Shown: positions 11,701-36,968 of the stretch, one piece after another
How positions within the stretch are numbered: the first letter of the stretch is position 1
Layout of the letters: each line of letters starts with the position of its first letter
Assembly: GCA_032718475.1 (NCBI GenBank)
Contig: JAUCBJ010001204.1
Location: 40,618 to 104,617, forward strand
Length of the DNA: 64,000 nucleotides
From: Nemertoderma westbladi
Taxonomy: Eukaryota; Animalia; Xenacoelomorpha
Direction: 5' to 3'
Translations under genes and position numbers: made by a program
The notes under the pieces: model-generated
Database searches by the model: none
What the model was told of the DNA's origin: nothing
Seen by the model: the letters and a program-made list of their open reading frames with translations, nothing else

Positions 11701-12961
11701 CTCCATGCAAGCCTTGGAGAAAGCAGAATTAATGCCATGACCAGTTCGGAGTAATCAATAGACAACCCACCCCAACCATTGGATTTACTGAGACTATCTG
11801 TACTCCAACCAGCTTGCTACCTGTCTTCCCAGCTAGCCAGAGTTAAATAATTATACAACGTTGCTATGATACAGAGAAAATCCTTCCCTATTCGCTACCA
11901 TAGGCAAAGTTCAGGCTGTGTGAGGGAATATTACATATTTATACACTATTTTATTTTCAATCAATAAATAATCATACATCGTTATATTAAACACTCGAAT
12001 ATAATAAAAACTTTGTGAGAATGGGACACGGCGAATCGACCTGTGCTATTTTTATACAGCAAGAGCTTACTTTTACCCGCTTAAATAATTAATAACCGAA
12101 ATAAGAACCCAAATAATCAATACATTTCTTTGTATAGTTTGCCATGAAGTAGAGCACTTCTTACCCTTCCAAGCCAATATCAATGTGCACAAACATACAT
12201 ACAGACAAACACACATAAGTTTTTTTTGACAGCAAGAAGCCCTGACGGTCTTCTAATTATCATTGTGATTGGCAGGTTACAGAGGCACCCAAAGCAATAA
12301 ACTAAACGAAATTAATAACGCATGTTACTGTTTGTAATCAGTCATAATTTGAGTCCATTTCCCTTGCAGATTCATGAAATTGATTGGTATGGCACCTAAT
12401 GAGTACATTTTTATGAATGTTGGTAATCCAATACACCAATGCAATGTAGGCAAAAGACTCCTACTTTATTTTTAAGCCAAATAATTAAGTTGGCCTACCT
12501 TGCTAGTTACCTGCAAGTTGGTCTACCATCTAGACCATTGCATCAGTTCAGCTAAATATTCATGTAAAAAAGTAATGTTTATTAACAATCTGATTATTTC
12601 TTGAAGGGATTCCTATTGGTTTGAGGGATTTTAAATTACATAATTTATGCAATTTAAATTCAATTTAGCCAATAATTTTGTTAGAATAAGAAATGATTAA
12701 GGCGGCAGTGTGCCGCCTTTGAGGGTAGGGTATAGGTAATAATGTGGTTATCTTCTTAATAGAAAAATCTCTGGTACGTCAAGAAAATAACATGTTAATA
12801 ACATGTTGACACATATTACATTAGCCCTACACTACAGGGCGGCCTTAATATCCAATAGATGCGCTCTTGTCCTCACCAATGTACTTTCCTGCCCACTATT
12901 GGCTTAACCTGATTAATTCTCACCTCGCAACTCCCTGTTGGCATTGTCCCTTGATGCTAGC

Positions 12962-13265
12962 CTTACTCCGCAATACGGGTGCTCCGCTTTACGGGTACTC
13001 CGCATTATCGGTACTCCGCGTTACGGGTACTCCGCTTTATGGGTACTCCGCGCTACGGGTACTCCGCGTTATGGGTACTCCGCATTACGGGTACTCCGCG
13101 TTACGGGTACTCTGCCTTACGGGTACTCCGCTTAAAGGGTACTCCGCATTACGGGTACTCCGCTTTACGGGTACTCCATGTTAAGGGTACTCAGCTTTAC
13201 GGGTACTCCGCATTACGGGTACTCCGCATTACGGGTACTCCGCTTAACGGGTACTCCGCGTTACG
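12962..13265. repeat. 16-bp minisatellite (TTACGGGTACTCCGCG)n, left copy
   Basis: Tandem 16-mer; the same array occurs at 36501-36968. Confidence 0.95.
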
Positions 13266-13720
13266 TGTGACGGAATCCGCTGGAGTTGACCGTGGTGGAT
13301 TCCGACTGGTGTGTGGATTGTACGCGTCGTCGCGTCCGTGGGCTGCTGGGCTAACGCTGGATATATATATATATTAGGCCGAAGGCCGTTGAAAACAACA
13401 GAGTTAAAATGTCAGTATTAATAATCACAGTAATTGATAATAGCACAGTCTGAATATAATAATATGCAATACAACGGTCAGTAACAACGACGGTCAAAAC
13501 TATTCCGGTCTCACAACTGTAAGGAAATCAACTAAACTAATAATCAGTAATCACAACGGTTATATCATTGACACATATTACATTAGCCATACACTACAGG
13601 GCGGCCTTAATATCCAATAGATCAGCTCTTGTCCTCCCCAATGTACTTTCCTGCCGACTATTGGCTTAACCTGATTAACCTGCTTAACCTGTTAGCGTTG
13701 TCCCTTGTTGCTAGCCTTGC
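13266..13720 (-). repeat. 3' LTR (shared portion) of the outer element
   Basis: High identity to 36043-~36500; diverges after ~13680-13720. U3 boundary unresolved. Confidence 0.75.
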
Positions 13721-14055
13721 TAGCTTGTTTGTCCCTCTGAGGTGGTTTGACCTCTCACCTTTCTCTGTGGCTTACGGCGTATGTCCCCCCCCCCCCCAGT
13801 TGGTTATGAAGTGAGATTATTGTTGGTGATCTCACCTCACCAACTATATTGGTAAAATGCCACTAACTTAGGAGTTTGTACTGTTGCGTTCATCTGGTGC
13901 CTTCCAGGCACACTTACACCCCTGTTCCTGTGTCCTAGTTTGCTCCTCCCGTCTTCGGGAACCATCTGAGTTCCTTGCCCCTATCATCATCTTGCCTAGG
14001 CCGTTTCCTTCCTTCCTGTTTATCCTTGAGGCTACTCATCCCTTGCCGATACCGT

Positions 14056-15613: not shown

Positions 15614-18600
15614 TTAACAACCTAAGGGCGATTCTTTCAGCAGGCAACTCTCCCACTGCCCCCCTGTAGGTTCTCTTAATCTTCGTCCCACTCTCCTTGT
15701 CAATTCCAACTCTCTTGGAATATACCTTCCCTTCTCCTCCACCCTAAAATTGGGTCTTTCCGTCACCTCACTGATCTCCTCGTGGTCCCCTGGCAGCAAA
15801 ATGCCACCCTTCATCTTGTCGTCATTTGGCAGTAGAATGCTGCCCTTTATGTCATCCTCACTGGTACATGCCACCTCTGCTGGCCTCCCCCTCAATATGT
15901 GCGCCGGCGTTAAAGCCCCCAATGACCCCCGGTCATCCTTCGGTACGCATAATGGCATAATGGCCCCGTGTACAACACGTCTCCTCTAACTTTCCTGCCT
16001 CCTTTGTCACGCTTCGTTATCGGCTTCTCTGCCTTTGGTTTAATCTTCCCACATCCTCTCCCTTTCCACCTTGTCTTCTTATTATACCTCCTCCCCATCG
16101 GTATGCTTCTCAACTGGACCGGCGTCTGTTCTGGACATCTATCCGGATATCTCGCCGTCCACTCTTCTCCATCCTCATACCGATACTCGCCAGGAACATC
16201 TATGTTCCATCCCATCGCCTCTAGGTCCTCTGCGTCAAACCCATTCTCCTCCGCCCACTCCCTTGGTGTTACTTGTCGTCCTGTCACCTCTTCCAACGGT
16301 ACTTCTCTGGATTCGCTCTCCACCCTTTTCATTATACGTGGATCCAGATCCATACCCATCCCCGACTCCTGGTGTCCTTCCTCGGGCTGCTTCCCATATG
16401 GGACCTCCCCATCGCCCGTCTTTGACTTCTGCTCAGGCCGCTTCCCATATGGGACCTCCCCATCGCTCGTCTTTAGTTTCTCCTCAATGTCCTCAACAGT
16501 ACCGGACAGCATGCATCCTGATATTTCGGATACACCAAACGGTGTCCTCGTCTTAATTGGGCCAGTGAGCGTCCATCCAAATGGCGTGAGAATGGCCATC
16601 GGGTCTCGCTCCCTGTCATCGCCAAAAATGATCTGTAGTCTCTCATGGGCTGTCAGACAGTCCATGCCGACTATGAGAGATACTTTCGAGACATCCAGTT
16701 CGGGCACAGAGAAGTCGATATTATCCAGGTACCCGTATTGCTCGACCTCGATCTTTGTGGGTCGCCTGGCGTTAATATTGATCGATTCTATTATCTGAAT
16801 GGGTTCGATCGCACCCTGGTGTTATCGCTGTTATCTCACAGCGTCCCTTTCTCATTCTCATGACCTCGTCCTTACTGGAAATAGTGGTTACCGCCATTTT
16901 ACTTGGCCTCGTCCGTAACCCTATCCTTTTGGCCACCCAACTCTCCGTTAGCGTGAATGCTGCTCCACTATCGACCAACATCAGTGTCATAACCGGCTCT
17001 ACTCCCAGCTCCTTGTGGACTACAAGTCCCCTGCATGGCCGCATGCTGTAGCGACTGTCTCACTTTCGGAAATGCATCCACTGAACTATGTTCTGGTTTA
17101 GGTCGGCTGCATTCCGCTTTCGGTACCTTCCCCAAACTGTCCTCACTGTAGACTGGGTCTGTGATTAATTCTGCCTCGTAGTTAAGGAAGTTCGACATCT
17201 CCTCCAGCCCTGGCTCCGCACCTTTCCTTTCTCGGGTGGAGAAAGCGATCTTTCTCCACTTATTTCTCAGCCAGATCGGTAGTGCCTGCGCTATTGTAGT
17301 GATATTGTTTGATGCATTGAGTTCGTAAGGTGCATCCAGAGTTTTTAATATTATCAGGCCTTTTCTACTTTATTAGCGAAGGTCTTGATGCTGACGGGAT
17401 TGTCTGTGAGTCTGCCTGATGTTATTCCCCTTAAGGTTTGTCGGATAATCTTCGCAGGATGGCCGAATTCCCTGTCCAGGGCTCGCCATGCAGTCGTGAA
17501 TCCTCCTTCAATACCTTGGTATTGTCTCACGATGTCGTATGCTGGCCCCCTGTATAGACTTGTAGATATTTAAGGCACTCCGCCTGCATGAGGTTTTTTG
17601 TTAGGATTTCGTTGCTGTACATACGCCGGAATTGCAGATATTCCTCCGGCTTGCTACCATCAAACTTGAAGGGCTCCACTGGCGGCAGCTCGATTCTAGT
17701 TTTTAGTGCGTCGATGAGTGTTGCCATTCCCATCGATTGTACTTCCAGGGCGCTCGATGGCAGGATATATCATTGGGGGTAGCGGTCCCCTCCATATCTC
17801 TGTGTCGCACGATTTGTTTGGATCTGAGGGGGTCGGGGTTCTTGTTTTTGGTTGTGTATAATGCGGATACTGTAATGGGGGAATGTCACCCTGCCCCCCC
17901 CCCCCCCCCACCGATGTTATGTTTGGTACTGGGGTTGATGTTATTATATTGGGGCCCATACACCTATCTGCAATACCCCTCCCCTCCCCTGGGTATATAT
18001 TGTATCCCTCTGCATGTTATAGTCATACTGGTGTGCAGGTACTGGTATAGGCCTATCGGCTCCTTGCCTATTAACCGGTATGTATGCTGCGACCTCCGGG
18101 TCCAATCCCATCATTCACGCTACCCTATCGCCTACACTATCTCTCCCAGCATGGCCTATTGTATGTGCAGTAAGGCCTACAGTATGTCCTGCAGTCTGCC
18201 TGTGTCCTTCTGGATCGAAGTTTAATCTTCTCGAGTATTCTGAGAACTCCTCCCCGCGACTACCATATTCTCGGTCGGCAGCTACGTTCTGACGGGAAGT
18301 TCCTCTCCGATCCCCTCTCCTGTCTTCTTCCTCGTACCGGTACACTCTGTACCCCTCTCCCGGCGTGTGGTATATTTCACCAGGTTGTGTTTCTCCGGGG
18401 CTACAGCAATCTCCCGGAGTATGACCCCACCGGCTCTCCTTCTCGACTTCGACTATCGGCGGTTCACTGTCCGTCCTTCCCCTCTGGTTGCCCATAGCAA
18501 CGCTTCCTCTTCCCTCTTCGATTCTTTTGACTTCAGTGTGATATCCTCCCTCATGAGATCTCATTTCGACCTCCCGGAAGAACTCCGCTGTTCTTCTCCC

Positions 18601-20079
18601 ATCTTCCGAGTGGGCACAACGTTTCCTCGTTTGGCCGCTTACGGCGGCACCAATGTCCCTCCCTCTGCCCGGTTGGACGGCCCCGCGGATATTCGCAGTC
18701 CTCCTACTATCCTCTGTTGCCGGGTGCCATGGTTCACTTAACTCACCATATGCATTATCTGCCGACGCTCGTGGGACATTCTCTGCCCCCCCCCCCCCCC
18801 CCCCTCTCATCCACCGTCGGGTGCCATAGTTCACTTAACTCACCGTGCGCATTATCCGCCGACCCTCGTGGGACATTCTCTGCCCCCCCCCCCCTCTCGT
18901 CATTAATTGGTTGTGGCGGGGTGCCCGTAGCCCCCAGCCCCCCCCCCCCCCCACCCGTCACCTCTTATTTCGCCCCATGTTCCGTTCCAGTCGACACGTT
19001 AGTTCTACCCTCACTGGGTTCATTCACCCCCGCTCCTCCCTGCGCAACTGCGTGGCCTTGTTTTCTCTCACTAGGCAAATTGCCTGTTCCCCCTACGTTT
19101 ATATTAATTGCACCGCTAATAGTCTCGCCCTGTTGGTTTGCTACGTTATTAATTATATTATTTTGATTAATTCCACCGGGGTTATTTATTATATTGTTAT
19201 TTGAATTATTATTTAAATTATTTAAATTATTTTGATCTACATTATTTATATTATTCAAATTATTTTGTTCACCATTATTTACATTATTACTTAAATTATT
19301 TTGTGCACCAATGTTAGAATTATTACCGGGCAAAATATTATCTCCTGCAAGAAAAGGTGCCATTTTTGCCAGTTCTAATCGGTGCTTCTGTTTCGCCTGG
19401 TATTGCATTAACCCCCTCAACCGGGTATGCATATCATCCTGCAATCGTTTGCCCGCCCTCTCTCTTTCTCTATCTTCTCTAACTCATTTGACAGTTGACT
19501 AATTCTGTCTCCCTCGCCTTCCACTCTCTACATTCGTCCACCTCCCTCGCCTCCCGCTCTTTCCGCTCATTTTCCACTACCTCCTCCCGCTCTTTGCGCT
19601 CGTTTTCCACTCTCTCATCACGTTCTTTGCGCTCATTTATCTCTCTTTCCTCCCGCCCCCTATAGTTTATCGCCACCCTCTCGGCCCTCTCTTTACACTC
19701 TCTCGCTAATTCCCTCTCCCTCTCTAGTCCCTCGTCCAATTGTCTCTCTAGTTCCTTTTGATCCAGCGCTACAATATCTAATTGACACGCCAGATCTATC
19801 TCTAACACCCTTCTTGCTTTCGCAGAGGATGTAGCGGACTTTCGGTTGAGACGGAGCTGTCTGTCCTACTAATTTTCCCGCGTTTGCTGCGATTCCTACT
19901 AACCAATGACACTGAATCTTCGGGGTTACCTCGGATTCGGTGTTGTGCGGATCCGCCCATCCCACTAACTTAATCCCCCTCGCATCTACCAGATAAGGCC
20001 CTAGGTAAACAATGCTGGCCTCCGCCACCTCGGATCGCTACAATTCAAACAGTTCAGTGGTGACCCCCGTTGCCCTCTC
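15614..20079 (-). pseudogene. gag: Outer element gag-protease, 3' part; frameshifted, RT/RNase H absent
   Basis: Fragment chain 19693-20028, 19479-19808 (coiled coil), 18965-19444 (Asn-rich), 18115-18834, 17527-17733 (BEL gag motif), 16968-17198 (LITDPVYS), 16772-17044 (DSG protease), 15910-16707, 15614-15958 (IN-tail remnant). Confidence 0.8.
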
Positions 20080-21245
20080 TGTAAAAGCTTTTGCGGAATT
20101 GGCTGGTTATTTTCCCCGCAAAGTACTCTGTAGTTGGTTTGACGGGCATAAAAGGCCGTTTCATTACTGTACTGGTGTTTTAGTGGACATAAAAAGCCAT
20201 TTCTTCTGTATGTGTACTTTAGCGGACATAACTAGCAATTTTATGTCGCAATACGCTAAAATCCTCTTGACACAGTGTAGTTACTATGACGACGGCTAAC
20301 AGCTGATCTGTACACGTGTAGCTTTTCCTTTGTCTCTTTGTTTGGACAACCAATCAGAGCGATTCTCCTGTTATTTGTACAGAAACCTCACTGTTTATGT
20401 TTACCTTTTTTGCCTGATGCCAGAAGACCGGCTTTGGAACCTCTGTGTTTTTCAGGCTTCAGTCCTACATTAGTAGGCTTGATCATCGAAACGTATATCT
20501 GTTATCAAACCACAAACAAACTCAACAAACTAATCAATGCAAATCATATTGTCAACTACAAACACCGCATTTTTACTGCTATTTACTGTCGGTTATTAAT
20601 TATATCAGTTGATGGAATATTATTATATTTGGATAATATCGGTGAATAATCATAAAACCCCCAATCTTCTTGATATACTGAAGGTAAGAGAGACCGGTTA
20701 CATATAACAATTGCGACTTACTTTAAAGTGGTTTTGGAGTGAATTTAATGCTATTTCATAGGCACTACATGAGTCGGTTGTTGTTCTCTTCATATGTGAC
20801 TAAAATCAGTGAAGGTAGGCAGATCGGTGTGCAGCATTGTGCGGTAGTGTGCATGATTGTGACTGATAACGAAGCATCTCCTAAAGAATGCGATTTATAC
20901 GTGAATCTATAGCCATCCCGTTGTGTCTAGTGTAAGTCATAACTCTGTTTACATATTTAGAGCGCCACGTCCTAAAGGAACTGTTAATATTTCCCAAAAG
21001 TGAATAATATTGGTCAGAAATTATATCTTAACGATCAGTTGAATAATACAGTAGGCCTACGCCGCAATAAGGTCAAGCCCCCGAATCCAGTCTCCCGGGT
21101 ATATCCAGCGGGTGAATGGTCGCGCATAGACTGGCTTCGGCTAATGTTGTGAATCAAATATTTGTCATAGGCTAAAGTCGATTTATAATCTAGAAGACAT
21201 ATAAATTTGGCAGGTTAAACTGCTAAAGGTCTGAAAGCGCGAACA
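20080..21245 (+). repeat. 5' LTR of inner element (1166 bp)
   Basis: TG...CA ends. Matches 34285-35471 except for roughly 15 substitutions counted by eye and one 21-bp indel. Confidence 0.96.
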
Positions 21246-21257
21246 ATAACAGATATA
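21246..21257 (+). promoter_or_regulatory. Putative self-priming primer-binding site (ATAACAGATATA)
   Basis: Immediately follows the LTR-terminal CA. Exact reverse complement of LTR 20494-20505 (TATATCTGTTAT). No TGG-starting tRNA PBS is present. Confidence 0.6.
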
Positions 21258-21525
21258 GCTTCTTTATTGCACGTAGGCAATAAAAGGGCAAAAGTACCGG
21301 TCGACCGGTAACTAGTAGGCCTAACTACCTAACCACCCGAACCGGTACTTACAGCAGTACAGGTACTAGTATTATTTCGATTGTGATATTGTATACCGGT
21401 AGGCTGTTTAAGAGATTAGGGACTGTACACCCCTTGTTTCTTTTGGAGCTTACTTATTTCTGTCAGTTTTATTTACTTGTAGGTTAATATTGAGCAGAAG
21501 ACGTGTAAGCCTGCCCAGAATATAC

Positions 21526-22105
21526 AGATAATTTGTAGGCTGGACTGTTCTCTGACTGTTGTTAAGTCTGAGGAGATTGTAGTGTGTGTAGAGCGTATGT
21601 CCGAAAACGTACTAGTTAGGAACGTAGGGGCTTCCAGTGCTGTGAGGTAAATTCCCTCGAAAGAATAAGTCGTACTACTCGGTTAGAACGCATACTAACT
21701 AACCATTTCGGAGTCTGCATATACTGTAGTTTGTTTAGGCTTGATAGTGGTCTGCCAGCGTTTGGTCTGTACTTTGTTTGTGTAGTCTGTACGGGTAGCG
21801 TAATATTTCTTATTTAGATAATTTGTAGGCTGGATTGTTGCCTAGCTGTTGTTAGGTTTGAAGAGATTGCGGTGTATGTACAGTGTATGTCCGATAAAGT
21901 ACTAGTTAGGAACGTAGGGGCTTCCAGTGTTGTGAGGTCAATCCCCTTGAAAGAATAAGTCATACTACTCAGTTAGAACGCATACTAACTAACCATTTCG
22001 GAGTCTGCAAATACCGTAGTTTGTTTAGGCTTGATAGTAGTCTGTCAGCATTTGGTCTGCATTTTGTTTGAGTAGTCTGTGCGCGTAGCGTAATATTTAT
22101 TATTC
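21526..22105 (+). repeat. 290-bp tandem duplication in the 5' leader of the inner element
   Basis: AGATAATTTGTAGGCTGG starts at 21526 and 21816; the two copies are colinear with scattered substitutions. Confidence 0.9.
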
Positions 22106-23441
22106 AGAGTTTATGCGATTATTCGCAACATTCATATCCCCAAGTTTATTCCTACAGTAATTGTGCTTGTTATATATACCGTTATAGTTAAATTAACCCC
22201 GGTACTACATCAGGGCTGCTTGGCGTAGGTAAAGACTGGTGATTTTGTGCCCCGGTCACTCCAGCAGATGCCGTGGTTCTTTTAGCTGTACAAGTATTTC
22301 TAACTGCTGATTATTTGTTGTATAAGTACTTGTACCTAATTTAGGGTTTAGTGTACAATACTTTCCGAAGGTAATTAGTGTGTAGGCAGTATATTTGTGT
22401 TGTAAAGTGGTTAATAGGCACGTTGGTTCTGGTAGACCGCGGTAATTAACTTCTAGGTAGGAACACTCCGTGATACATAACGTAGTACTTATAGCGATAC
22501 GGCTATAAGTCGTCAGACGGTGGTATTTTTCCTATCTGGACAACACAGTATATTTACTACTGCTTTGTTATTTTCAAATACCGTAGTACCCTGTCTGTTG
22601 CAATAACCAGATATTCTAACCCTTTGTTAGGCTGGTTTGTAGACTTCTTGTAAAATTACCCTAAAAATTCGTACGTGTAATTTTTGTGTTTATTTAGAGA
22701 TTGTAATCTCACCCCGAATTGTACGTAATTTGTAGTATTAAGTAACTTAGGTAAATTATAATTATTTGTTTTAGTGTCCAACAAGTAGCACTTCACTGAG
22801 AGCGTACAGCTTCTGTGCAGTGACTCCTTCCTAGAAATAATAACATTTATTTCAAATATTGACAAAACCCATTATACGGGTATATATATATTATAAATCA
22901 ACTCAAACCGATTTATAAAATAGTAGGCCTGTCTTACAACAATTAGGTCTTAATGTCAGTTGGACTACTGCTTAAATAACGGTAATCAAGTAAAGTAAAG
23001 TAACCAAGTAACCCCTAAAATTCAGAAATTCAATTATTCTAAAAATAATTGACATACCGGTATTTACAATAGGCTCATTGTATTTATTTCTATAAATTTA
23101 GGCCGAAATTATACCGGTATTCTGTAATTAATTCTAGTCCATAATTATACTTATATATACTATAAGTGTAAGCTGTATACTGGTATTCACGATAGGCCTA
23201 TTATATATTTATATATATAGTTGTGCTAAAATTATATACCGGTATTCTGTGACAAACCTAGTCTGTAATAATACTTATATATATACTATAAGTGTATACC
23301 GGTATTCTAATATATTGTATATATATCACGTTACATAGAGTAACGATATCGGCAATTAATTACTAGGCTAACAGTGATACTGAATTACTAGATTTGCTTT
23401 AACTGTAACATAGCAGTAGGCATTCAACTGTGCAAACAAAC

Positions 23442-25727
23442 ATGTCTGACACAAAGCAAAACCTGTCAGACAGTCTCCTAGATACGACCATCTGTGACCC
23501 AGACAGGAGTGTGGAACGTGTGAGACCGAAGTTCAACTCACCTCCTACTGTAAGAAAGATCATCCCTCCAGTAGTAATATCAGACCCTAGGCTAGTCCAA
23601 CATCGTAGGTCTATCATAGGCACTCGAGCTCAGGTCAAGCGGGACCAAGAAGCAGCGGAACAGCAGCAACACTCGAGCCGAGAACTTATTTCTCAGCGGA
23701 CCGACAGCTCCAGTGGTGCGGATACTGTAGAGCTGACACCCGAGCGCGGAGCTAAGATGGCAGATGCGGTTTATTCGGATCCCCTTCTCATCCTTCCTGC
23801 AGCCGTACTCGCTAGGGTATTGATTGCGGTGGAGGAACACCAGATTGATTGGGCGAGAAGTAAGCGATCGACCAAGGATAGTTATGCAGGATACACAAGG
23901 GAAGAACTGAAGTCTATTGTCGAGTCGCAATGGAACTTCCCCGGACCCGGACTCCCGTTTGACTTATCGGAAGCTGCCTGGGAAGGCATACACAGGATGG
24001 GAGTGACAGAAGAAAACCAGCGATCCAGCTGTGTGTGGAAGAGGTCAGCAGCAGGATATGTACAGGGATTCTTCAGCTCTATGGAGCGATTAGAGGAACA
24101 ACTGTTTCGACAACCCCAAGGACCTCAAGAGCAGGGAGAGCTGCTTTATCAAGTTAGAGAAAGAATTCTACGAATCAGACTAATCTTATCGGCCTTTGAG
24201 GAGGCTTCGAAAAGAAGACAAGACACGTCGTTGCAAGTTGCCATAAAGACTTGGTTTCAGCGGGTGAGTCTCCAAGTTCAAGGAACTGCCCAGTGGAAAT
24301 CTCGGCTGGCCGAGCGCTCAACCCATGGAGAATCAACAGACGCTACATTTTCCCAAGTGGAAAGTGAAGCGACGGCAGAGAAACCGCATGAGAGGGACGC
24401 TATTGACATCTATCTGTCAGACTATCAACGATTTGTAGGTGACGAAGAGTTGAGGAGATGGCTGTCTGGACTTAGCCCTAATAGTGAAGGAGCCAAGCTT
24501 GTGTTGGACGCAATCGATGCGGAGATGATAGCTGCGAACCAAGCTAAATTTGATGAACGCCTCCGCATCGCTAGAGTCCAAGAAGAACAAGTAAAGAAAA
24601 AACGTATAGAAGACAGAAAGACAGCGGCAGCGGCAGAAGTTGAAAGAAAAGCGGCAGCGGCAGCGGCAGAGGCAGAAGCGGAAAGAAAGGCGGTAGAAGT
24701 GGAAAGAAAGGCGGTAGAATTGGAAAGAAAGGCGGTAGAAGTGGAAAGAAAAGCGACAGTGGCAGCGGCAGAAGCGGAAAGAAAAATAGCAATGGCAGAA
24801 GCAGAACGAAGGGCATCTGAAGAGACCACCCAACTAGAACTGGAAAATATTCAAGAGAATCAAGACTGCATAAATAAACAGTTAACAGCTAGTAATATGC
24901 AGATGATGAATCGATCTACTCCCAAAAGACAGGGATATACATCATCTGATGAAGGCGATACCACCGATCCTGAAGGCGGAGGAAATAGATCTCGTCTAAG
25001 CAGACGTAGAAGAATGTCCCACCGTCAGAAATTGCCTGATTTGCCCCCAGCTGTTAGAAGGCAACTAACTAACACAGGCTTAGGTAGTACAGAACCCACA
25101 GACCAAATAATTAAAATAGAAAGACTCCCTACTATAGTAGATGAGCCTGAAATAATTAGGCCTGTTCTTGAAATCACCCCTTCGGTGATAGAGACACCTG
25201 TGCTCCCAGAACCTACCTCTAAATTCCCTTTGCACAGTACTAAACTACCTGTGCCCCACAAAACAACCCCTGAGACAGTTCATGTCCTGGACTCCGAGCG
25301 GAATATTAATGATTTGTCGCCCGTTGTCCCTCGTCCGCCCGCTACAACGTTGGCGGCTCCCGCTTCGGCGGTCGAGTGGGTGGATGAGAGGCGGCGGGGG
25401 ATGGATCTCCTGCTCGGGCAGATGCAGGAGACTGTTCAGCAGTTCAGGGGCACAGTAAGGGAAAGTAGGTTAGAGTTGCAAGAAGTGCAGCAAAGTATCG
25501 CGTTAGAACGCGATAAATTAGTAAATACCCAAAGAGGTATACCACCACCACCACCCCCGGTAACAATGTGTCAACCTGTTAGGTCTGAAGTATCTCATGC
25601 GCAAGGTGTAGAGCCTACACGCATCTATACTGCTAGTGAAGTGGAAACTCCTATAGTCAACCCTATTAAGGGTAATTATAAACCTGTTGACAATGATATT
25701 CCATATAGACCTGATCATAATCCGTGA
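23442..25727 (+). CDS. gag: Gag N-terminal region (coiled-coil, AEAERK repeats, Pro-rich)
   Basis: Long ORF with first ATG at 23442. Same frame as 25764-28016 and separated from it by a single TGA. Confidence 0.75.
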   Translation: MSDTKQNLSDSLLDTTICDPDRSVERVRPKFNSPPTVRKIIPPVVISDPRLVQHRRSIIGTRAQVKRDQEAAEQQQHSSRELISQRTDSSSGADTVELTPERGAKMADAVYSDPLLILPAAVLARVLIAVEEHQIDWARSKRSTKDSYAGYTREELKSIVESQWNFPGPGLPFDLSEAAWEGIHRMGVTEENQRSSCVWKRSAAGYVQGFFSSMERLEEQLFRQPQGPQEQGELLYQVRERILRIRLILSAFEEASKRRQDTSLQVAIKTWFQRVSLQVQGTAQWKSRLAERSTHGESTDATFSQVESEATAEKPHERDAIDIYLSDYQRFVGDEELRRWLSGLSPNSEGAKLVLDAIDAEMIAANQAKFDERLRIARVQEEQVKKKRIEDRKTAAAAEVERKAAAAAAEAEAERKAVEVERKAVELERKAVEVERKATVAAAEAERKIAMAEAERRASEETTQLELENIQENQDCINKQLTASNMQMMNRSTPKRQGYTSSDEGDTTDPEGGGNRSRLSRRRRMSHRQKLPDLPPAVRRQLTNTGLGSTEPTDQIIKIERLPTIVDEPEIIRPVLEITPSVIETPVLPEPTSKFPLHSTKLPVPHKTTPETVHVLDSERNINDLSPVVPRPPATTLAAPASAVEWVDERRRGMDLLLGQMQETVQQFRGTVRESRLELQEVQQSIALERDKLVNTQRGIPPPPPPVTMCQPVRSEVSHAQGVEPTRIYTASEVETPIVNPIKGNYKPVDNDIPYRPDHNP

Positions 25728-25763
25728 AATTTATATACCGATAACTCGATATTAAATAACACG

Positions 25764-28016
25764 ATGGCCCAAGAAAGTTTTACGCGTCAAATGGCTAGAA
25801 CCGAAGCCCGTCAAGCGGTAAAGGTGGGAGAGATAGTCAAGTTCAATGGAGATGAGATGAAATGGTTACCTTTTAATGAATATTACAAAGATAACATACA
25901 GAACTCTGTGCTATCTAACGGAGAGAAACTTAGATTCCTTATCGAGTGCTTGGAAGGATCTCCCAAGTTAATGGCGTTAAAGTTTATTGGACATCCAGAT
26001 GGATTAAGACAAGTTTGGGATACACTAAACATCAGGTATGGTAATAGGACTAACATAGCTAGGTATTTATATGCGAAATTAATGGCGCCCCGAAAGTTTC
26101 TTAGCAGCGGGATTATAGAGTTTTCCGACGAGATTCAAGAGATCTGTAGACAACTAGATTGGTTAGGTAAGTCTCATGAATACCAGAATTCTATGGTTGT
26201 AGGAACCTTAGCATCTACTTTGCCCAAGGGTGGAGTAGGTACACGCTGGGACAAGAAAATGTTATATATGATGGAACAACAACGACGAGACCCTACCATG
26301 GCTGATCTCATGTCATTCTTAGATGGAGAGGTAAAATTACAGCTCCTAAAGCAGTCCAGAGAGAAGACACCGGAAAATAAGGTAAGTGAGAAACCCGTTT
26401 CTAGGAGAAAGGTAATACCAGTGTGTTATACAGACGACGGCGAAAGCCAGGCTTCTCAAGAGGAAGACAGCGGGAAAGACACTGAAAGATCTTACTATGA
26501 AAACAAAGCGCCTAAGGACGTAAGTAAATTCAAGTCTCGAACCAATGATAGGAGAGAACAGGTAAGAAAAACTCCTCCTACGTCTCCTAAGAGAATTCAT
26601 GTAGGAAAGCCCGAGGAAAGAACGAGTGTGCACAACGTTACCCAAAGTAAGGTAAGTAACATCAAACCAAAATGTGCGCTGTGTGACGGGCCCCACCGTT
26701 TAAGTGCGTGTGATGAATTCCTGAGAAAATCATTAAAGGATAGACGGGAAGTCATGTGGGATAAGCGGTTGTGTTATAATTGCCTCAGACAAGGACACCA
26801 ACGGCGAACCTGTTACTCCGACGCAAGGTGTGCGAAGTGCGGCGCAAAACATCATATCTTGTTGCACACTGAATTCGAACGAAACAGCCCGAGTCAGGTA
26901 AGTGAGTCCGAACTACATGTCCAATTCAGTGATGTGAACGACACTGACCAAAGTTCTGAGATGGAAGGATTCTATACAGACGAATTCTCCGACGAAAACG
27001 AATCCTGTTACCTGATAAATACCGCAGTGTATCGAGCACTTACGTATGAAAAGGACACCGACAGCGAGCTCCCCCTAACTACTTCTGACCGACAACCATC
27101 TTGGAAAGCACCAACTTCCAATGTAGGAATCCGAGAATTTCCCGTAGTGCAGTTAAGGGTCCACGGACCTAAAAGGAGTTATACAGTGAACGCCCTCCTT
27201 GACTCCGGTAGTACAGGAACATTCATCGACAAAGAACTAGCCGAAGACATCTTTGCTGGACAACCCAAGTTCCGAACTAAGTTAAACATGTCAGGAATTA
27301 TGCAGGTTTGGAAATCTACAGTAATAGCGGATTATTATGTAGGTGCGTTGTCCACCCCCCAGGATGAACTAGGAGAACACAGCATAAGGTCAGTAAAAAT
27401 GGTGGCGATAAAGAACTTCGCTACCAGCCAAGTAGAACCTTATAACTGGGATGAGGATGATTCCACCCAGCAGCTTAATATACCTAGATTCAACACAGAC
27501 TACCCTGGAGTGCAAATACTCATCGGCCAAAATGCGCATGAGGCGCTTGAGACATTGGAGAAACGGCCTGCTCAACCGCAACCACTACAAGCCTATGCGG
27601 GAAGAACTAGAGTAGGTTGGTACTTTACTGGCCCTTCCCGTAGAACTCTCCTAGAAAGGTTACCAAAAGAACGGGTATACCAAGTAAGTGAATGGGAAGC
27701 GGAGAGCAGTGAGGTAGACGACCCAACTGAGGGAACACCATACTCCTCAGATAATGATGATATTAACTCCAATGTAGATCAATGGAGACATTGCCCCGAG
27801 ACGATTAATCTAGCCGACATCGCTTCCAGAGGAGTAACTCCTCAAGAACTGACAGATACTCCAGACTGGTTAGGTGGACCCGACTTCCTAAGTCAAGAAG
27901 ATGAATGGCCTCCCCATCTTACCACGGCTGAGATTAGACAAGCCAAGGGAGCGGAGAAAGTCAAACCTAAATCCCGGGCGAGTAAATCTCTAAATCAAGG
28001 TTATTTAAACCCGTGA
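25764..28016 (+). CDS. gag: BEL/Pao Gag core, CCHC zinc knuckles, aspartic protease and RNase H C-terminal remnant
   Basis: IVKFNGDEMKWLPF..LSNGEKLRFLIECLEG (BEL gag). Knuckles CALCDGPHRLSAC, CYNCLRQGHQRRTC, CAKCGAKHHILLH. Protease ALLDSGSTGTFI, then VQILIGQN..RTRVGWYFTGP. Pao RNase H tail QWRHCPETINLADIASRG..WLGGPDFL. No YxDD RT motif. Confidence 0.92.
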   Translation: MAQESFTRQMARTEARQAVKVGEIVKFNGDEMKWLPFNEYYKDNIQNSVLSNGEKLRFLIECLEGSPKLMALKFIGHPDGLRQVWDTLNIRYGNRTNIARYLYAKLMAPRKFLSSGIIEFSDEIQEICRQLDWLGKSHEYQNSMVVGTLASTLPKGGVGTRWDKKMLYMMEQQRRDPTMADLMSFLDGEVKLQLLKQSREKTPENKVSEKPVSRRKVIPVCYTDDGESQASQEEDSGKDTERSYYENKAPKDVSKFKSRTNDRREQVRKTPPTSPKRIHVGKPEERTSVHNVTQSKVSNIKPKCALCDGPHRLSACDEFLRKSLKDRREVMWDKRLCYNCLRQGHQRRTCYSDARCAKCGAKHHILLHTEFERNSPSQVSESELHVQFSDVNDTDQSSEMEGFYTDEFSDENESCYLINTAVYRALTYEKDTDSELPLTTSDRQPSWKAPTSNVGIREFPVVQLRVHGPKRSYTVNALLDSGSTGTFIDKELAEDIFAGQPKFRTKLNMSGIMQVWKSTVIADYYVGALSTPQDELGEHSIRSVKMVAIKNFATSQVEPYNWDEDDSTQQLNIPRFNTDYPGVQILIGQNAHEALETLEKRPAQPQPLQAYAGRTRVGWYFTGPSRRTLLERLPKERVYQVSEWEAESSEVDDPTEGTPYSSDNDDINSNVDQWRHCPETINLADIASRGVTPQELTDTPDWLGGPDFLSQEDEWPPHLTTAEIRQAKGAEKVKPKSRASKSLNQGYLNP

Positions 28017-30127: not shown

Positions 30128-33100
30128 ATGACTGAGTTGATAGAAGATGATCTTGGTATCAGGGAGCGATATACTTTACCTTTACAAGTGTTTGTTGACA
30201 GCTTTATACGCGGCGACGCTGGTCCAACTACTACGGAGGACGATGGTCGTTATATCGAACCGCCAATGTCCCAGGAGCAACTTACGCGTGAATTGGACTA
30301 TAGAAAATTCACCGCTCGCTATACGCATCGTAATGGTACGTATATGGACTTCTTAACTACCGGCCATCCTATCGATTTACACGATATGGACGATATCGAC
30401 ACCGAAAGGGAAATGGTCCTATTTAAATATCATACCCAGTGGAGTCGGAATGATAAATTGAGAATCGAATGCGAAAATTCTATTCGAAATCGACTCGAAA
30501 GAGAAGACGTTAAAGAACCGGATAAACGCGGTAACTCCAACGTATATTTGGAATTCTTGAGAGAAACATTGTAAAACCGAATAAATATCACCCGCGTTTC
30601 CCCTACAAGACGTGCGTCTTTGGTATTATTGCGATGAATGCCCAAGACCCAACCAACAAACGGAAAGACGTAAACATCCGTAGAGACATTGCTTTAAACA
30701 CGGTTTTACTCGCTATATTTATGGGAGTTTCGAGCGAAACTTGTTCGATGTATCACCTACGCTCGCTCGATTCAAACGATCCTTAAATAAACCTATGATC
30801 AGAGTTCCGGGATACTCGGTCAGACCTCCTCATTCCTCAGTGAGACCTCAAACGCTTGATCCTAATAGTATAACGGATCCCCCTGAACTGTACTCACTAT
30901 TTAAAGATCTTGTGTTACCCGAACAGTTGATCGGTAGCACTCCGGTAGTGGGCTCACTAGATATTCGCCAACCCTACCTAGCCGGATTAGGACGCGGTCA
31001 TCTAATATCGCCGTTTAACCCGTACAACCGTCCAGGCTTAAACCCGATACAACCCGTTACTGAAGTCGAAGAGAGCGTTGTACGAAACGCTTTAGACGCT
31101 ATTCAGCAGAAAATCGGAAAAGGAACTTACGATTGTTTAGAGAAACGCAAATTGCAGCAACAAGTCCAAGCGGTGAAAGAATTAGCTTTACCCCAGTTCA
31201 ATAGAGAAATACAGGATCTCGAGGAAGACATCGAACGTGGACGCACCTACTCTTTACAAGAGTTCCTAGACGAGCGTTTACAACAGCAAGCGGAGGAAAA
31301 TCAGCTCGAGGAGAGACATATAGAAATGGATGAGAGAGAAGAAGCAGCTTTAGCCCAGCCGGAAGCTCAAATTCTTATAACGGATCTCTATTCTAAAACC
31401 ATCATCCATCCTTCGATGGTTCCCCATTTCGGAGACAAACTCTTTGCCACGGCACAGCCTCAACCGGTTGATATCAACCTAAGATCTCGAGATCTTATCG
31501 CTGACGCTCCTATGTTGCAACGTCCGCCAATCGAGGCCGCTCGTGTCGATGGTTTACTCGTTGAACCTCCGGACAATAGAGCGGATCTTGTCCGTCGCAT
31601 GGTACACGATGTTAACATACGCGCTAGACCTTTACCGAACTCGTTTTATGGGATCAAAGATCACCCTTATTACGTCAATCTAACGCAATATTACATGGTA
31701 AAACCGGAAGATCCTACACATAGTCTGAGGTTTCTACCACTAATAAATCCTCTCGATCTTGTCGAACTTGAACAACTGCAGAAACATCTGGACCAGTTAG
31801 TTAAAGTAAATTCATTTCGAAAACCCTATAATGTTTCCAGGATAGAGAAAGAGACAATACCTCCGTATAATCTTGATGGATTCATCAAAACTCGATTAGT
31901 ACACTGGAATCTCGATGTGTTATTCGAGGAGGAAAGAATACAACGATATGGAGATTTAGAAACATATACTACACAATATTTAAAGTATAGAGATCTACCT
32001 AACGCTAGCGAATGCGCTACCTTGTGGCATCCAGTGGGAATGACTCTAGAAAACGCCACAAAAGAGTGGAATGAGACTCTTAACGTTATCGAAATGTATG
32101 GAGTTGTCACTTACGATAACGAAGGTAGCGTTCCGGTTGGAGAACTGGGAACTACGCGAATGATACACATACGAGGACTAGCTGGTTCTACCCACGTATT
32201 TACTCGAGCGTGTTCCGATGTGATTGATTATTCCTTTGAGACTCTAACCAAGACACAAAAGAAACTCCGACATGGACAATTCGAACTCGCGCAGCGTTAC
32301 GTCACCGACACCGAGCGCAAACCGGCCATGGGTATCGATGGATCGATGTTACCCCAGCCCGTGCTCGAGATGTTGTTTAACGAAAGAATCCTTAAAATCG
32401 GCTCAGCTGTTTATGGAGATCTCCAAAACGACTTTAGGAACATGGAAAACATTCCATACCCTTTCATTGATACTCAGCTGATTGCTCCCTGGGCAGAAGG
32501 CCGAGGTTTCTTCTGCACTATGTACGCAAATACAACCAGCGGCATTACTAAAGTACAACGAACCTCCATCGGACATCTTGCCTTTCAAGAATACGGATGG
32601 AATTTCGAGGTTGAAAATCCTATTAACTATCAACAAGTATATGGAGATCATTATTCTCGATTATACTTTGACGGACCATTGACCGCACCTGGCACCGTGT
32701 ATAGCTTTATGATTGTACCACTTCGTCCCTCCTTAGCTATATACACGATCTTTGAAAAAGCCGCACTTGCCGGTTGGCTAGCCGATGTGTGCAGTCGTAC
32801 CATACGCGCCCATCCCTTAATACTTGGAACCAAACTTGCCAAGCTAGATGAACACAATAAATTCATCCGCTTCGAATGTTTCAGGCGCTTTTTGACTCCG
32901 TTCCGTAACGTTGATAGTCAATTCAAGGACCGCGCTCTGACCAAACTCAGCCTAAGAGACTCAGCTGCGGAGAAGTTAAACAGCGCGGGATTCGCCCTTT
33001 TCAAGGACGTTTGTATACAGAACTTACATTCATCTGTTATACAAAGACCTCGAATACCCACGGGTTATTCTGTCGTGGAAGTTCAGACAGTGGGTTCACT

Positions 33101-34207
33101 TGCGGAGACAGCCGCACCTATCTCAGCTATGCAATTGGAGGACGAACCAATATGCTTAGAATCTGAGGAGATTCAGCCTACAGCGCCCCGGAACAGCGAT
33201 AACGACTACGTTTTGGAATGGTATCAAGGTCCACAATGTCTCACCGCATACGATTATCGGCACGCCAACTATGTTTCTCGAAAACGTTGCCGATTATGCG
33301 CATCGAGAAATCATTTCACCCCTATGGACTCAGACGTACCCTGCTCCTATTTCCACGAACAACCGATGATATAGATCTATTGTGCGTATTGCAGACTTAA
33401 TAACTCGCACATTTTTGCAGTCTGCCCCCAATTTATGACTCAATGCCACCACTGTCAACTTAAAGGACATGCCAGTTTTAATTGCCCTTTTAACCGCGAT
33501 TTGGAAAGCGTAGATGAGTTGATTACCCTGCGCTACATCCGAGCTTGGGAAGCGAACGCGGATTTGCATTGTGAGTCACGCCATCGCTATTACCCTGGAC
33601 GCGCCTACGAGGGAGTTTACGCGTTCCATCCTTATCTATTCGCGTCTGTTGAACAAAAAACACGCACACTGAGTTATGAACTAATGAAGCGTGTATTTCC
33701 ACCAAATTTGTTCGAAAATATCTCAGGAACGTCAATCCTAACGATATTAATTCATACCATTTGATCAATTTCATCCGTCAAGACCCTGAGTATGGCGATT
33801 TATTTATCAACTCGCACCCTGAGTTACAGGAAGTATCTCGACGGCCCTACGAATATCGAGCCAGAGAACGTGAGCTGGAAAGAACCATTAAACCGAGGAA
33901 GTTTCTCACCACTCACGGTCCACCTACCGCTATTGTCCAGACGACTCGTCAGGGACCAGTAGGAGCTGCTGTCCTAAGACGCGCCCTAAAGGCCGTTGAC
34001 CTCGCTCCACTGAAGTTGATATCGATCAACCAGGTACCTCGACCGGCGGATACACCGATCGTAATCCTAAACCTTCTGATGCAATTGTATTGCACCCTTC
34101 ACCCAGGAGTTACAGCCCTCTTAGTAAAGTGGCTCGCCCCAAAGAGAAAAGGACTCTTGCTAGCCTCAAAAAACTGCGTAAACGCCGTCCGCGTAAGAAA
34201 GACTAAC
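30128..34207 (+). pseudogene. Extra cargo gene of the inner element: DEDDy-like 3'-5' exonuclease, three CCHC knuckles and a basic tail; broken by a few stops/frameshifts
   Basis: ORFs 30128-30574, 30741-33374, 33435-33764 (same frame as the preceding ORF, one TAG between) and 33761-34258. An alternative-frame tail ends KKLRKRRPRKKD* at 34207. Confidence 0.7.
30741..33374 (+). CDS. 877-aa ORF containing a WRN/EXD/RNase D-like DEDDy exonuclease domain
   Basis: ExoI GVVTYDNEG (D 32115, E 32121). LPQPVLEMLFNERILKIGSAVYGDL resembles LP..L..LL.DP.ILKVG.....D (ExoII D 32418). Then PFIDTQLIA, SIGHLAFQEYG, and PLTAPGTVYSF..SLAIY resembling PLS..Q..YAA.DA..SL.LY. Confidence 0.75.
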   Translation: MFDVSPTLARFKRSLNKPMIRVPGYSVRPPHSSVRPQTLDPNSITDPPELYSLFKDLVLPEQLIGSTPVVGSLDIRQPYLAGLGRGHLISPFNPYNRPGLNPIQPVTEVEESVVRNALDAIQQKIGKGTYDCLEKRKLQQQVQAVKELALPQFNREIQDLEEDIERGRTYSLQEFLDERLQQQAEENQLEERHIEMDEREEAALAQPEAQILITDLYSKTIIHPSMVPHFGDKLFATAQPQPVDINLRSRDLIADAPMLQRPPIEAARVDGLLVEPPDNRADLVRRMVHDVNIRARPLPNSFYGIKDHPYYVNLTQYYMVKPEDPTHSLRFLPLINPLDLVELEQLQKHLDQLVKVNSFRKPYNVSRIEKETIPPYNLDGFIKTRLVHWNLDVLFEEERIQRYGDLETYTTQYLKYRDLPNASECATLWHPVGMTLENATKEWNETLNVIEMYGVVTYDNEGSVPVGELGTTRMIHIRGLAGSTHVFTRACSDVIDYSFETLTKTQKKLRHGQFELAQRYVTDTERKPAMGIDGSMLPQPVLEMLFNERILKIGSAVYGDLQNDFRNMENIPYPFIDTQLIAPWAEGRGFFCTMYANTTSGITKVQRTSIGHLAFQEYGWNFEVENPINYQQVYGDHYSRLYFDGPLTAPGTVYSFMIVPLRPSLAIYTIFEKAALAGWLADVCSRTIRAHPLILGTKLAKLDEHNKFIRFECFRRFLTPFRNVDSQFKDRALTKLSLRDSAAEKLNSAGFALFKDVCIQNLHSSVIQRPRIPTGYSVVEVQTVGSLAETAAPISAMQLEDEPICLESEEIQPTAPRNSDNDYVLEWYQGPQCLTAYDYRHANYVSRKRCRLCASRNHFTPMDSDVPCSYFHEQPMI

Positions 34208-34276: not shown

Positions 34277-34284
34277 GGGAGCGG
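34277..34284 (+). promoter_or_regulatory. Polypurine tract (GGGAGCGG)
   Basis: Directly precedes the TG of the 3' LTR. Confidence 0.6.
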
Positions 34285-35471
34285 TGTAAAAGCTTTTGCG
34301 GAATTGGCTGGTTATTTTCCCCGCAAAGTACTCTGTAGTTGGTTTGACGGGCATAAAAGGCCGTTTCATTACTGTACTGGTGTTTTAGTGGACATAAAAA
34401 GCCATTTCTTCTGTATGTGTACTTTAGCGGACATAACTAGCAATTTTATGTCGCAATACGCTAAAATCCTCTTGACACAGTGTAGTTACTATGACGACGG
34501 CTAACAGCTGATCTGTACACGTGTAGCTTTTCCTTTGTCTCTTTGTTCGGACAACCAATCAGAGCGATTCTCCTGTTATTTGTACAGAAACCTCCGGGAA
34601 ATCGCGCAATGCATTACTGTTTATGTTTACCTTTTTTGCCTGATGCCAGAAGACCGGCTTTGGAACCTCTGTGTTTTTCAGGCTTCAGTCCTACATTAGT
34701 CGGCTTGATCATTGAAACGTATATCTGTTATCAAACCACAAACAAACTCAACAAACTAATCAATGCAAATCAGATTGTCAACTACAAACACCGCATTTTT
34801 ACTGCTATTTACTGTCGGTTATTAATTATATCAGTTGATGGAATATTATTATATTTGGATAATATCGGTGAATAATCATAAAACCCCCAATCTTCTTGAT
34901 ATACTGAAGGTAAGAGAGACCGGTTACATATAACAATTGCGACTTACTTTAAAGTGGTTTTGGAGTGAATTTAATGCTATTTCATAGGCACTACATGAGT
35001 TGGTTGTTGTTCTCTTTATATGTGACTAAAATCAGTGAAGGTCGGCAGATCGGTGTGCAGCATTGTGCGGTAGTGTGCATGATTGTGACTGATAACAAAG
35101 CATCTCCTAAAGAATGCGATTTATACGTGAATCTATAGTCATCCCGTTGTGTCTAGTGTAAGTCATAACTCTGTTTACATATTTAGAGCGCCACGTCCTA
35201 AAGGAACTGTTAATATTTCCTGAAAGTGAATAATATTGGTCAGAAATTATATCTTAACGATCAGTCGAATAATACAGTAGGCCTACGCCGCAATAAGGTC
35301 AAGCCCCCGAATCCAGTCTCCTGGGTATATCCAGCGGGTGAATGGTCGCGCATAGACTGGCTTCGGCTAATGTAGTGAATCAAATATTTGTCATAGGCTA
35401 AAGTCGATTTATAATCTAGAAGACATATAAATTTGGCAGGTTAAACTGCAAAAGGTCTGAAAGCGCGAACA
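34285..35471 (+). repeat. 3' LTR of inner element (1187 bp)
   Basis: Copy of 20080-21245 with an extra 21 bp (CGGGAAATCGCGCAATGCATT); followed by TSD CTCTC. Confidence 0.96.
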
Positions 35472-35984
35472 CTCTCACTTGCTAGTTCCCCCTGTCCAAA
35501 TCGGACTAGATAACGAAAATGTTTGTTGCACTCACCTAGCCTTTGGTACAACTTGGGCTGGTCTACCTTTCTCCCCTCCCTAGCGTCCTTCAACAGCCTC
35601 TTTGCGGCGTTGTATCCTCGTCGTAGGCGATCACTCATCCCAACGTCTTCCTCGTGGACTTTGCCTTCCCTCCTCGCCCCGCGCCCTACCGTCGGCCCTA
35701 CTGTCGCCATTCCGGTGGGCCGTTCGCCGCCCTCGGCCAGTGGTTGGCCTGGCGATTTCGGTACCTCGTCCGCCACTGGGATCTTGCGTCGACTTGTTTT
35801 CTCTCCCTCCCTGTACTCGGCCGCCCTCCTCCTCGATGTCCGGAGCCTCCCTCGTTGGCGATTCCGGTGTGGCGGGCCGGTACCGCCTCGTCGCGGCCTC
35901 TCGAAACGTTTGGTCTCTATCGCTCGGGGTCCGCGGCAGAGTCCCTTTGGTTTCTGAACCTCGGGGCGTTTGTTCGCTCATCAT
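35472..35984 (-). pseudogene. gag: Outer element gag, 5' part
   Basis: ORFs 35631-35984 and 35441-35776. Removing the inner element and one TSD copy joins ..GELASE-RATGVTTELFEL*RSEVAEASIVYL in frame with ORF 19693-20028. Confidence 0.75.
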
Positions 35985-36032: not shown

Positions 36033-36042
36033 TAGTTTTGAC
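36033..36042 (-). promoter_or_regulatory. Putative self-priming primer-binding site of the outer element (sense GTCAAAACTA)
   Basis: Abuts the LTR end at 36043. Plus-strand TAGTTTTGAC is the exact reverse complement of LTR 36268-36277. Confidence 0.55.
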
Positions 36043-36968
36043 TGTGACGGAATCCACTGGAGTTGACAGTGGTGGATTCCGATCGGTGTGTGGATTGTAC
36101 GCATCGTCGCATCTGTGTGCTGCTGGGCTAACGCTGGATATATATATATTACGCCGAAGGCCCTTGAAAACGACAGAGTTAAATTGTCAGTATTAATAAT
36201 CACAGTAATTGATAATAGCACAGTCTGAATATAATAATATGCAATACAACAGTCAATAACAACGACGGTCAAAACTATTCCGGTCTCACAACTGTAAGGA
36301 AATCAACTAATCTAATAATCAGTAATCACAATGGTTATATCATTGACACATATTACATTAGCCCTACACTACAGGGCGGCCTTAATATCCAATAGATGCG
36401 CTCTTGTCCTCCCCAATGTACTTTCCTGCCGACTATTGGCTTAACCTGATTAATTCTCACCTCGCCACTCCCTGTTGGCATTGTCCCTTGATGCTAGCCT
36501 TACTCCGCTTTACGGGTACTCCGCGTTACGGGTACTCCGCGTTACGGGTACTCCACATTACGGGTACTCCGCGTTACGGGTACTCCGCGTTACGGGTACT
36601 CCACTTTACGGGTATTCCATGTTACGGGTACTCCGCGTTACGGGTACTCCGCGTTACGGGTACTCCGCGTTACGGGTACTCCGCGTTACGGGTACTCCAC
36701 ATTACGGGTACTCCGCGTTACGGGTATTCCATGTTACGGGTACTCCGCGTTACGGGTACTCCGTGTTACGGGTACTCCGCGTTACGGGTACTCCGCGTTA
36801 CGGGTACTCCGCGTTACGGGTACTCCACTTTACGGGTATTCCATGTTACGGGTACTCCGCGTTACGGGTACTCCGCGTTACGGGTACTCCGCGTTACGGG
36901 TACTCCACTTTACGGGTATTCCATGTTACGGGTACTCCGCGTTACGGGTACTCCGTGTTAGGTACTCA
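36043..36968 (-). repeat. 5' LTR of outer element, including the 16-bp minisatellite (36501-36968)
   Basis: Starts TGTGACGG and ends GGTACTCA. Homologous to 13266-13720 and to 12806-13265. Right boundary inferred. Confidence 0.65.

Follow-up and report, generated by a model that had tools for sequence, protein, structure and literature searches.

How does a BEL/Pao-type LTR element start minus-strand DNA synthesis when no tRNA-type primer-binding site (PBS) follows its 5' LTR? This question is raised by two elements, one nested in the other, in the window, i.e. the whole stretch of 64,000 nucleotides that was analysed. Among the LTR classes of animals, BEL/Pao ranks second in abundance (PMC3118150). 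As the preliminary description of this locus noted, its members are usually described as tRNA-primed: according to the ICTV, the PBS of Belpaoviridae comprises 18 nt complementary to host tRNA-Arg or tRNA-Gly, and their tRNA-primed replication is poorly understood (PMC8742986). Self-priming has been shown for Tf1, where the first 11 bases pair with the PBS and RNase H cuts between bases 11 and 12 (PMC7175516), and has been proposed for Tf1/sushi, for Tcn1 and, in PMC6317226, for the Copia TAR lineage. From the sequence, folding models and the analogy with Tf1, we consider it probable that both elements of the window, which are non-autonomous and BEL/Pao-derived, use part of their own transcript to prime minus-strand DNA, in the manner of Tf1.

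The inner element is nested within a minus-strand outer BEL-type element (Table 1). The end of its 5' LTR is firmly placed, because there is a second LTR copy and the 5-bp target-site duplication CTCTC is intact on both flanks. The two LTRs (20080-21245 and 34285-35471) share 97% identity and differ by one 21-nt indel and 14 substitutions. Given these ends, the 12-mer that follows the LTR starts at the first base past the terminal CA (offset 0), and it is there that the 3' end of the LTR segment pairs, in the register reported by the preliminary description. Its two other observations also hold. Reverse-complementing 20494-20505 gives precisely the letters of 21246-21257, the match being exactly 12 nt long and the segment being conserved in the 3' LTR at 34720, and no TGG is present near the LTR end, the first one lying 198 nt into the leader.

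Table 1. Features of the inner and outer elements, in positions of the window
Feature	Position	Strand	Remarks
Inner 5' LTR, TG...CA, 1166 nt	20080..21245	+	Self-BLAST and alignment to 34285-35471
Inner 3' LTR, TG...CA, 1187 nt	34285..35471	+	Holds primer copy at 34720-34731
Target-site duplication CTCTC	20075..20079 (left copy), 35472-35476 (right copy)	+	5 bp
Predicted self-primer, inner element	20494..20505	+	12/12 complementary to PBS; duplex -11.8 kcal/mol
Predicted unpaired linker, A/C-rich (85%)	20506..20545	+	Just 3' of primer; highly variable among family copies
LTR arm of predicted 20-bp LTR-leader stem	21055..21078	+	Pairs with 21258-21278
LTR arm of predicted 12-bp U5 stem	21120..21132	+	Pairs with 21228-21242; alone not significant
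U5-end arm of predicted U5 stem	21228..21242	+	
Inner PBS, directly 3' of terminal CA, no TGG	21246..21257	+	Predicted single-stranded between two stems
Leader arm of LTR-leader stem	21258..21278	+	Alternative: local hairpin with 21274-21290
ORF1, 772 codons between stops, without a family match	23409..25727	+	Same frame as gag, one in-frame stop between
Gag (DUF1759, three zinc knuckles) and protease, BEL/Pao-type, fused to RNase H C-terminal remnant (27765-27965)	25728..28016	+	
Cargo ORF, 859 aa from ATG 30795	30684..33374	+	Likely DEDDy/RNase D-like 3'-5' exonuclease domain at ~32050-32850
CCHC-like knuckles after cargo domain, continuing past a stop	33288-33761	+	
PPT candidate, short purine-rich tract preceding inner 3' LTR	34277..34284	+	From sequence
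Outer PBS, directly after LTR terminal CA, no TGG	36033..36042	-	
Predicted self-primer, outer element	36268..36277	-	10/10 complementary to its PBS
Outer primer copy in other outer LTR	13493..13502	-	13266-13678 matches 36043-36453, 95%
Predicted U5 hairpin (12 bp), outer element	36046..36084	-	Ends 3 nt before PBS
Gag/protease remnants, BEL/Pao type, several frames, outer element	16483..17724	-	tblastn best E 8e-11, profile 1.2e-7

A match of at least 12 nt arose in 8 of 20000 dinucleotide shuffles of the inner LTR, and the Markov expectation is 3.5e-4. This is about four times the chance of 1e-4 given in the preliminary description, which had allowed for a higher value in AT-rich DNA. When the internal region was used as a source of pseudo-PBSs, a single position out of 12921 equalled the match. 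Cross controls, i.e. the inner PBS against the outer LTR and vice versa, gave 6 nt, and same-strand controls 6 and 5 nt. None of the 16 sites that differ between the two inner LTRs falls in any of the four arms, a number of sites too small to matter.

The outer element shows the same arrangement with different letters. Its LTR copies begin at 13266 and 36043 (plus-strand coordinates), and the ten bases past its 5' LTR, 36042-36033, pair perfectly with the LTR segment 36277-36268. The offset is once more 0, and no TGG comes after the LTR (first TGG at 267 nt). By chance, at least 10 nt were reached in 21 of 20000 shuffles of the LTR without its tandem array and in 27 of 20000 with it, in 17-18 of 5000 when offsets 0-3 were allowed, and at 4 of 6241 internal positions used as pseudo-PBS. 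Aligned by their 3' ends, the inner and outer primers are identical at 5 of 10 positions and different at the other 5. If independent, the two matches at a pre-set offset have a joint probability of about 4e-7. A second family of the window has different letters in the same register, which the preliminary description had not considered; no compensatory change was seen within a family. No clear target-site duplication and no clear far LTR end were found for the outer element, whose target may have been an LTR from its own family. Its LTR copies (12806-13790 and 36043-36968) are permuted around a 16-bp tandem array, with 19 copies left of the left LTR and 29 inside or beyond the right one. A weak similarity between the inner and outer LTRs was also noticed in an AT-rich block that lies 3' of each primer (20581-20654 vs about 36272-36190, minus strand); 11 of 500 local shuffles were as good, and the primers are not aligned by it.

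Metagenomes provided 71 BEL loci for comparison, 21 of them with long direct repeats and 9 with a resolvable 5' LTR end; these 9 represent about 6 families (three pairs share sequence), and the other 62 were left out of the count. All 9 have a TGG within 2-8 nt of the LTR and a self-complement of at most 7 nt. When 30 of the 71 loci were scanned less strictly, 6 of them had matches of 10-11 nt following a CA (7 matches in all), none of which was at a resolved LTR end. As these elements belong to another clade and have short LTRs (99-393 nt), the control set only shows that the method recovers ordinary tRNA sites.

We then considered the folding of the RNA around the PBS. The unconstrained fold of 21045-21290 contains a 20-bp and a 12-bp stem, and the terminal ACA and the PBS form the open stretch that separates the two. 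None of 200 shuffles was as good (z -3.2). In 8 of 8 folds computed without the primer, the inner PBS is unpaired with a probability of 0.83-0.95. The LTR-leader stem begins at the first base 3' of the PBS, and its predicted energy of -26.6 kcal/mol is matched by 2 of 1850 internal 22-nt windows and by none of 783 GC-matched ones. The U5 stem is not significant alone, since 114 of 758 GC-matched windows equal it. At 20 °C, the LTR-leader stem has a competitor in a local hairpin of the leader. The predicted layout of the two stems and the open PBS resembles the arrangement described for the Tf1 "pretzel". Because the pairing of the primer crosses the leader stem, the structure would be a pseudoknot, which ViennaRNA, restricted to nested pairs, cannot show. 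In nested folds starting at 20494, the probability of the primer helix is 0.99 for an RNA ending at 21300, 0.63 at 21400 and 0.0 at 21520; the model is blind to pseudoknots, yet the fold to 21520 gives no support to the helix. In the outer element, a 12-bp U5 hairpin is predicted (z -1.6), and no LTR-leader stem was found (222 and 238 of 300 shuffles as good).

The coding content identifies the type of element. The ORF at 25728-28016 matches DUF1759 (E 3.6e-12), all 14 long Gag homologues found are BEL-type polyproteins (19-38% identity), and the three zinc knuckles are common to both, with invariant Cys/His columns. A profile built from 13 BEL polyproteins gives an E value of 6e-63 and matches only its positions 8-619 and 1174-1239 of 1759: in this search, the RT and the integrase core were absent and only a short RNase H tail was present. 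The inner element is therefore non-autonomous, and its priming needs the enzymes of an autonomous partner. The proteins nearest to it share 27-43% identity over short stretches. Searching metagenome contigs with the inner Gag-protease, we found no relative among 16 stretches; viral contigs gave 5 short loci with matches of 18-19 residues only, which were not used. The inner element is a non-autonomous BEL/Pao derivative rather than a full member of Belpaoviridae. With the genus Semotivirus of this family, it shares TG...CA LTRs in the 0.2-1.2 kb range, a DUF1759 Gag with three zinc knuckles and a protease, and its RNase H tail resembles that of BEL polyproteins. Unlike Belpaoviridae, it has no tRNA-type PBS, lacks RT and the integrase core, carries extra ORFs and is 15.4 kb long (vs 4.2-10 kb).

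The complementarity, which is observed over 12 and 10 nt right up to the LTR end and in the absence of a TGG, would be used as follows. The transcript would start at or just before 20494, which would make the segment the 5' end of the RNA. U5 and the leader are predicted to form two stems that keep the PBS open, and the 5' end, on an unpaired A/C-rich linker, is predicted to anneal to the PBS as a pseudoknot. As in Tf1, RNase H, here that of the autonomous partner, would then cut after 20505, and the RT of the partner would extend the primer into U5. During plus-strand synthesis, the PBS would be rewritten from the primer; in Tf1, a PBS copied from the primer is present in about half of the cDNA (PMC11042837). 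The two arms would thus stay matched while drifting, and two families would have different perfect pairs. Self-priming by this route is supported by two independent tests, the match in the outer element and the predicted stems flanking the inner PBS. Counted against it were the lack of a TATA box before 20494, the loss of the helix in long folds, the missing leader stem in the outer element and a family copy with a changed 12-mer. The preliminary description had concluded that this BEL lineage self-primes. The 10/10 outer match and the two predicted inner stems favour this view, which concerns two non-autonomous families in one window, the inner one devoid of RT.

For the copies of the inner family, contigs of sequencing runs X1 and X2 (one sample), X3, and X5 (a second organism) were aligned to 19900-23400. 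We obtained 33694 (X1), 16693 (X2), 9110 (X3) and 226 (X5) contigs, whose summed depth is not a copy number. With its intact target-site duplication, 14 LTR-LTR substitutions and thousands of contigs on the LTR and leader, the family has been much copied. Among the listed X1 and X3 pieces at 20450-20507, 5 out of 16 end at 20506-20507. The X1/X3 depth, about 10000 across the 12-mer, is less than 130 at 20518-20529 and recovers from 20542, and the indels listed for these runs lie at 20489, 20492 and 20515-20532, with none at 20494-20505. The sequence shared by the family therefore stops where the primer stops. The variant table leaves out differences near contig ends, so that it does not prove the invariance of the primer, and one loose end in X3 shows a copy in which position 5 of the 12-mer is substituted. 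The 40 variants shown out of 528 on 19900-23400 include none in either arm and are uninformative on the PBS. In X5, which may be a run of RNA, no contig covers the 12-mer, which is no evidence either way. In the 2.2-kb leader, a 290-bp tandem duplication (88%) was also observed at 21521-22108, and family contigs show joints that skip one unit. The LTRs contain splice-site-like motifs at 20684 and 20815 (donor-like), at about 21212 and 20456, and at 36292 (minus strand), with an acceptor-like motif shortly upstream of each primer. A primer assembled across a splice junction was rejected as unnecessary, both primers being contiguous, although donor-like motifs do exist.

The explanation that best survives beside self-priming by the RNA 5' end, while being unlikely, is that the pairing is real and involves another part of the RNA. 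The segment would lie in U3 or inside R, and its copy in the 3' LTR (34720), or a second RNA, would pair with the PBS, either to yield a primer once cut or simply to circularise the RNA. The segment is indeed present in both LTRs, and there is no canonical promoter at 20494. No TATA box is found 25-35 nt upstream of this position; an initiator-like TCAGTY occurs at 20459 (35 nt upstream). In the outer element, a TA run situated about 130 nt 3' of the primer is a potential TATA box. In addition, the bases 3' of the inner segment are A-rich, as they would be past a cleavage site. Against this explanation, neither AATAAA nor ATTAAA is present in either LTR, and the helix probability peaks in both elements when the RNA starts at the segment. 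With a start at the initiator-like site (about 20457), the inner helix drops to 0.59 for an RNA ending at 21300 and 0.05 at 21400; the outer helix reaches 0.7-1.0 if the RNA begins at the primer and 0.01-0.43 with 14 extra bases (37 °C). Moreover, sharing among family copies is low upstream of about 20560 and strongly higher downstream, which is the expectation for R/U5. For a purely structural role, the flush stop at the LTR end in both elements would be unneeded. As to a promoter further downstream, the sole TATAAA of the inner LTR, at 21200, was rejected as a poor candidate because it is polymorphic, being altered in 38, 45 and 30% of the depth in X1, X2 and X3, respectively. Tf2 is described as having a downstream start that is not productive (PMC5341516).

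Still less probable is priming by a host small RNA, for example a 5' tRNA half produced by cleavage in the anticodon loop. Some Copia lineages use half-tRNA primers, which need no TGG (PMC6317226). Such a primer would not explain why two families each have a perfect complement in their LTR (about 4e-4 and 1e-3), nor why the match ends exactly at the first PBS base. By eye, and after the fact, we noticed that both primers end in a pyrimidine-T-NNN-A-N pattern, which we take to fit the anticodon loops for Asn and Gln. With the inner primer, however, the tRNA stem would be all A/T, which is unusual for a cytosolic tRNA. Furthermore, Rfam gave no match at 19900-23500, and no tRNA gene was found within the 64-kb window. 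Finally, coincidence, or a single snap-back duplication in defective copies for which a PBS has become dispensable, would suit the internal deletion of both elements, the higher match frequency of AT-rich 12-mers and the contig with an altered 12-mer, but is very improbable given two families agreeing at a pre-set offset, a 20-bp stem that starts right after the PBS and the traits of a family that was copied.

The mechanism is thus quite likely to be like that of Tf1 in an element that is not a Tf1/sushi member. In Tf1 and Tf2 (Schizosaccharomyces pombe), Tj1, Tosmo1-3, Tcry1 and the Tf1/sushi and Tcn1 chromoviruses (Ty3/gypsy), the PBS likewise adjoins the 5' LTR and pairs with an LTR segment. 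The match has a similar length in Tf1 (11 nt; PMC7175516) and in the inner (12) and outer (10) elements. Tf1 requires three duplexes, namely the primer-PBS helix and two others in which sequence next to the PBS pairs with parts of the LTR 3' of the primer (PMC10085805); for the latter two, counterparts are predicted in the inner element, one of them significant, and only a U5 hairpin in the outer element. The inner PBS (21246-21250) and the Tf1 PBS (PMC11042837) share their first five bases, ATAAC, by chance or through a shared constraint. Unlike the Tf1 group, the elements described here have Gag and protease of the BEL/Pao type, no chromodomain integrase, and are non-autonomous; with a DUF1759/BEL-type Gag and no integrase core found, the inner element does not belong to Tf1/sushi. 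In addition, about 740 nt separate its primer from the PBS, the LTR being 1.17 kb long, and the start and cleavage shown for Tf1 are here presumed.

Outside Tf1/sushi, self-priming has been predicted from sequence for the TAR lineage of plant Ty1/copia (Houba, Osr-1) from a complement of at least 10 bp within 0-5 nt of the LTR (PMC6317226), which both the inner and the outer elements also display. TAR belongs to another superfamily in hosts of another kingdom, and is likened to them by this prediction. In the open-access papers surveyed by title, opening of the abstract or excerpt, we found no report of self-priming in BEL/Pao. The likely novelty of these putative self-primers is their occurrence in BEL/Pao, the Tf1 route itself being already known. 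If true, this route would exist in a third superfamily, which suggests a repeated origin, down to the flanking stems. The elements would be independent of the host tRNA supply and would lack the site used by tRNA-fragment silencing (PMC7472051). Annotation tools that demand a tRNA PBS would miss such elements or misplace their bounds.

The inner element also carries a cargo ORF (30795-33374), likely with an RNase D-like (DEDDy) 3'-5' exonuclease domain. This domain has an Atlas score of 0.91, with 24 of 30 hits to PF01612, and a weak match to NCBIfam rnd (E 0.0027, far below the cutoff); its acidic motifs ExoI, ExoII and ExoIII were placed by eye. The ORF had no match in Pfam or PDB, and its single-sequence structure model (pLDDT 32) was unusable. 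No similar exonuclease ORF was found in the examined part of the outer element. Juno and Vesta, LTR elements of bdelloid rotifers, also have an RNase D-like DEDDy ORF3 downstream of pol in an animal host (PMC5408684). They are likened to the inner element by this type of ORF; the excerpts of PMC5408684 do not describe them as BEL/Pao, and no mention of a PBS or of self-priming was found there. It is conceivable, at long odds, that a BEL/Pao lineage reached the Tf1 pretzel independently, free of tRNA, and that its own DEDDy exonuclease trims the cut RNA to the edge of the primer-PBS duplex. If so, the primer would be matured by an element-encoded nuclease other than RNase H.

Elsewhere in the window, single long ORFs at 2135-3223 and 42511-43620 (both minus strand) match the Pfam families Peroxin-3 and BSMAP/TMEM59, with no homologues in two protein searches. 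From sequence, such Pfam matches without homologues indicate a very divergent animal-type host. Fragmented ORFs at 57810-61130 look, by eye, like a decayed Gypsy-type element, one tested ORF giving no Pfam match. At 46662-49123, an inverted repeat of about 450 bp (90%) surrounds an array of 10-bp units and is possibly a DNA transposon. Two further stretches, 1-1700 and 43958-45023, hold between them a 35-bp satellite with about 98% identity and a duplication spaced by 707 bp, after which comes an inverted copy of nearby sequence.
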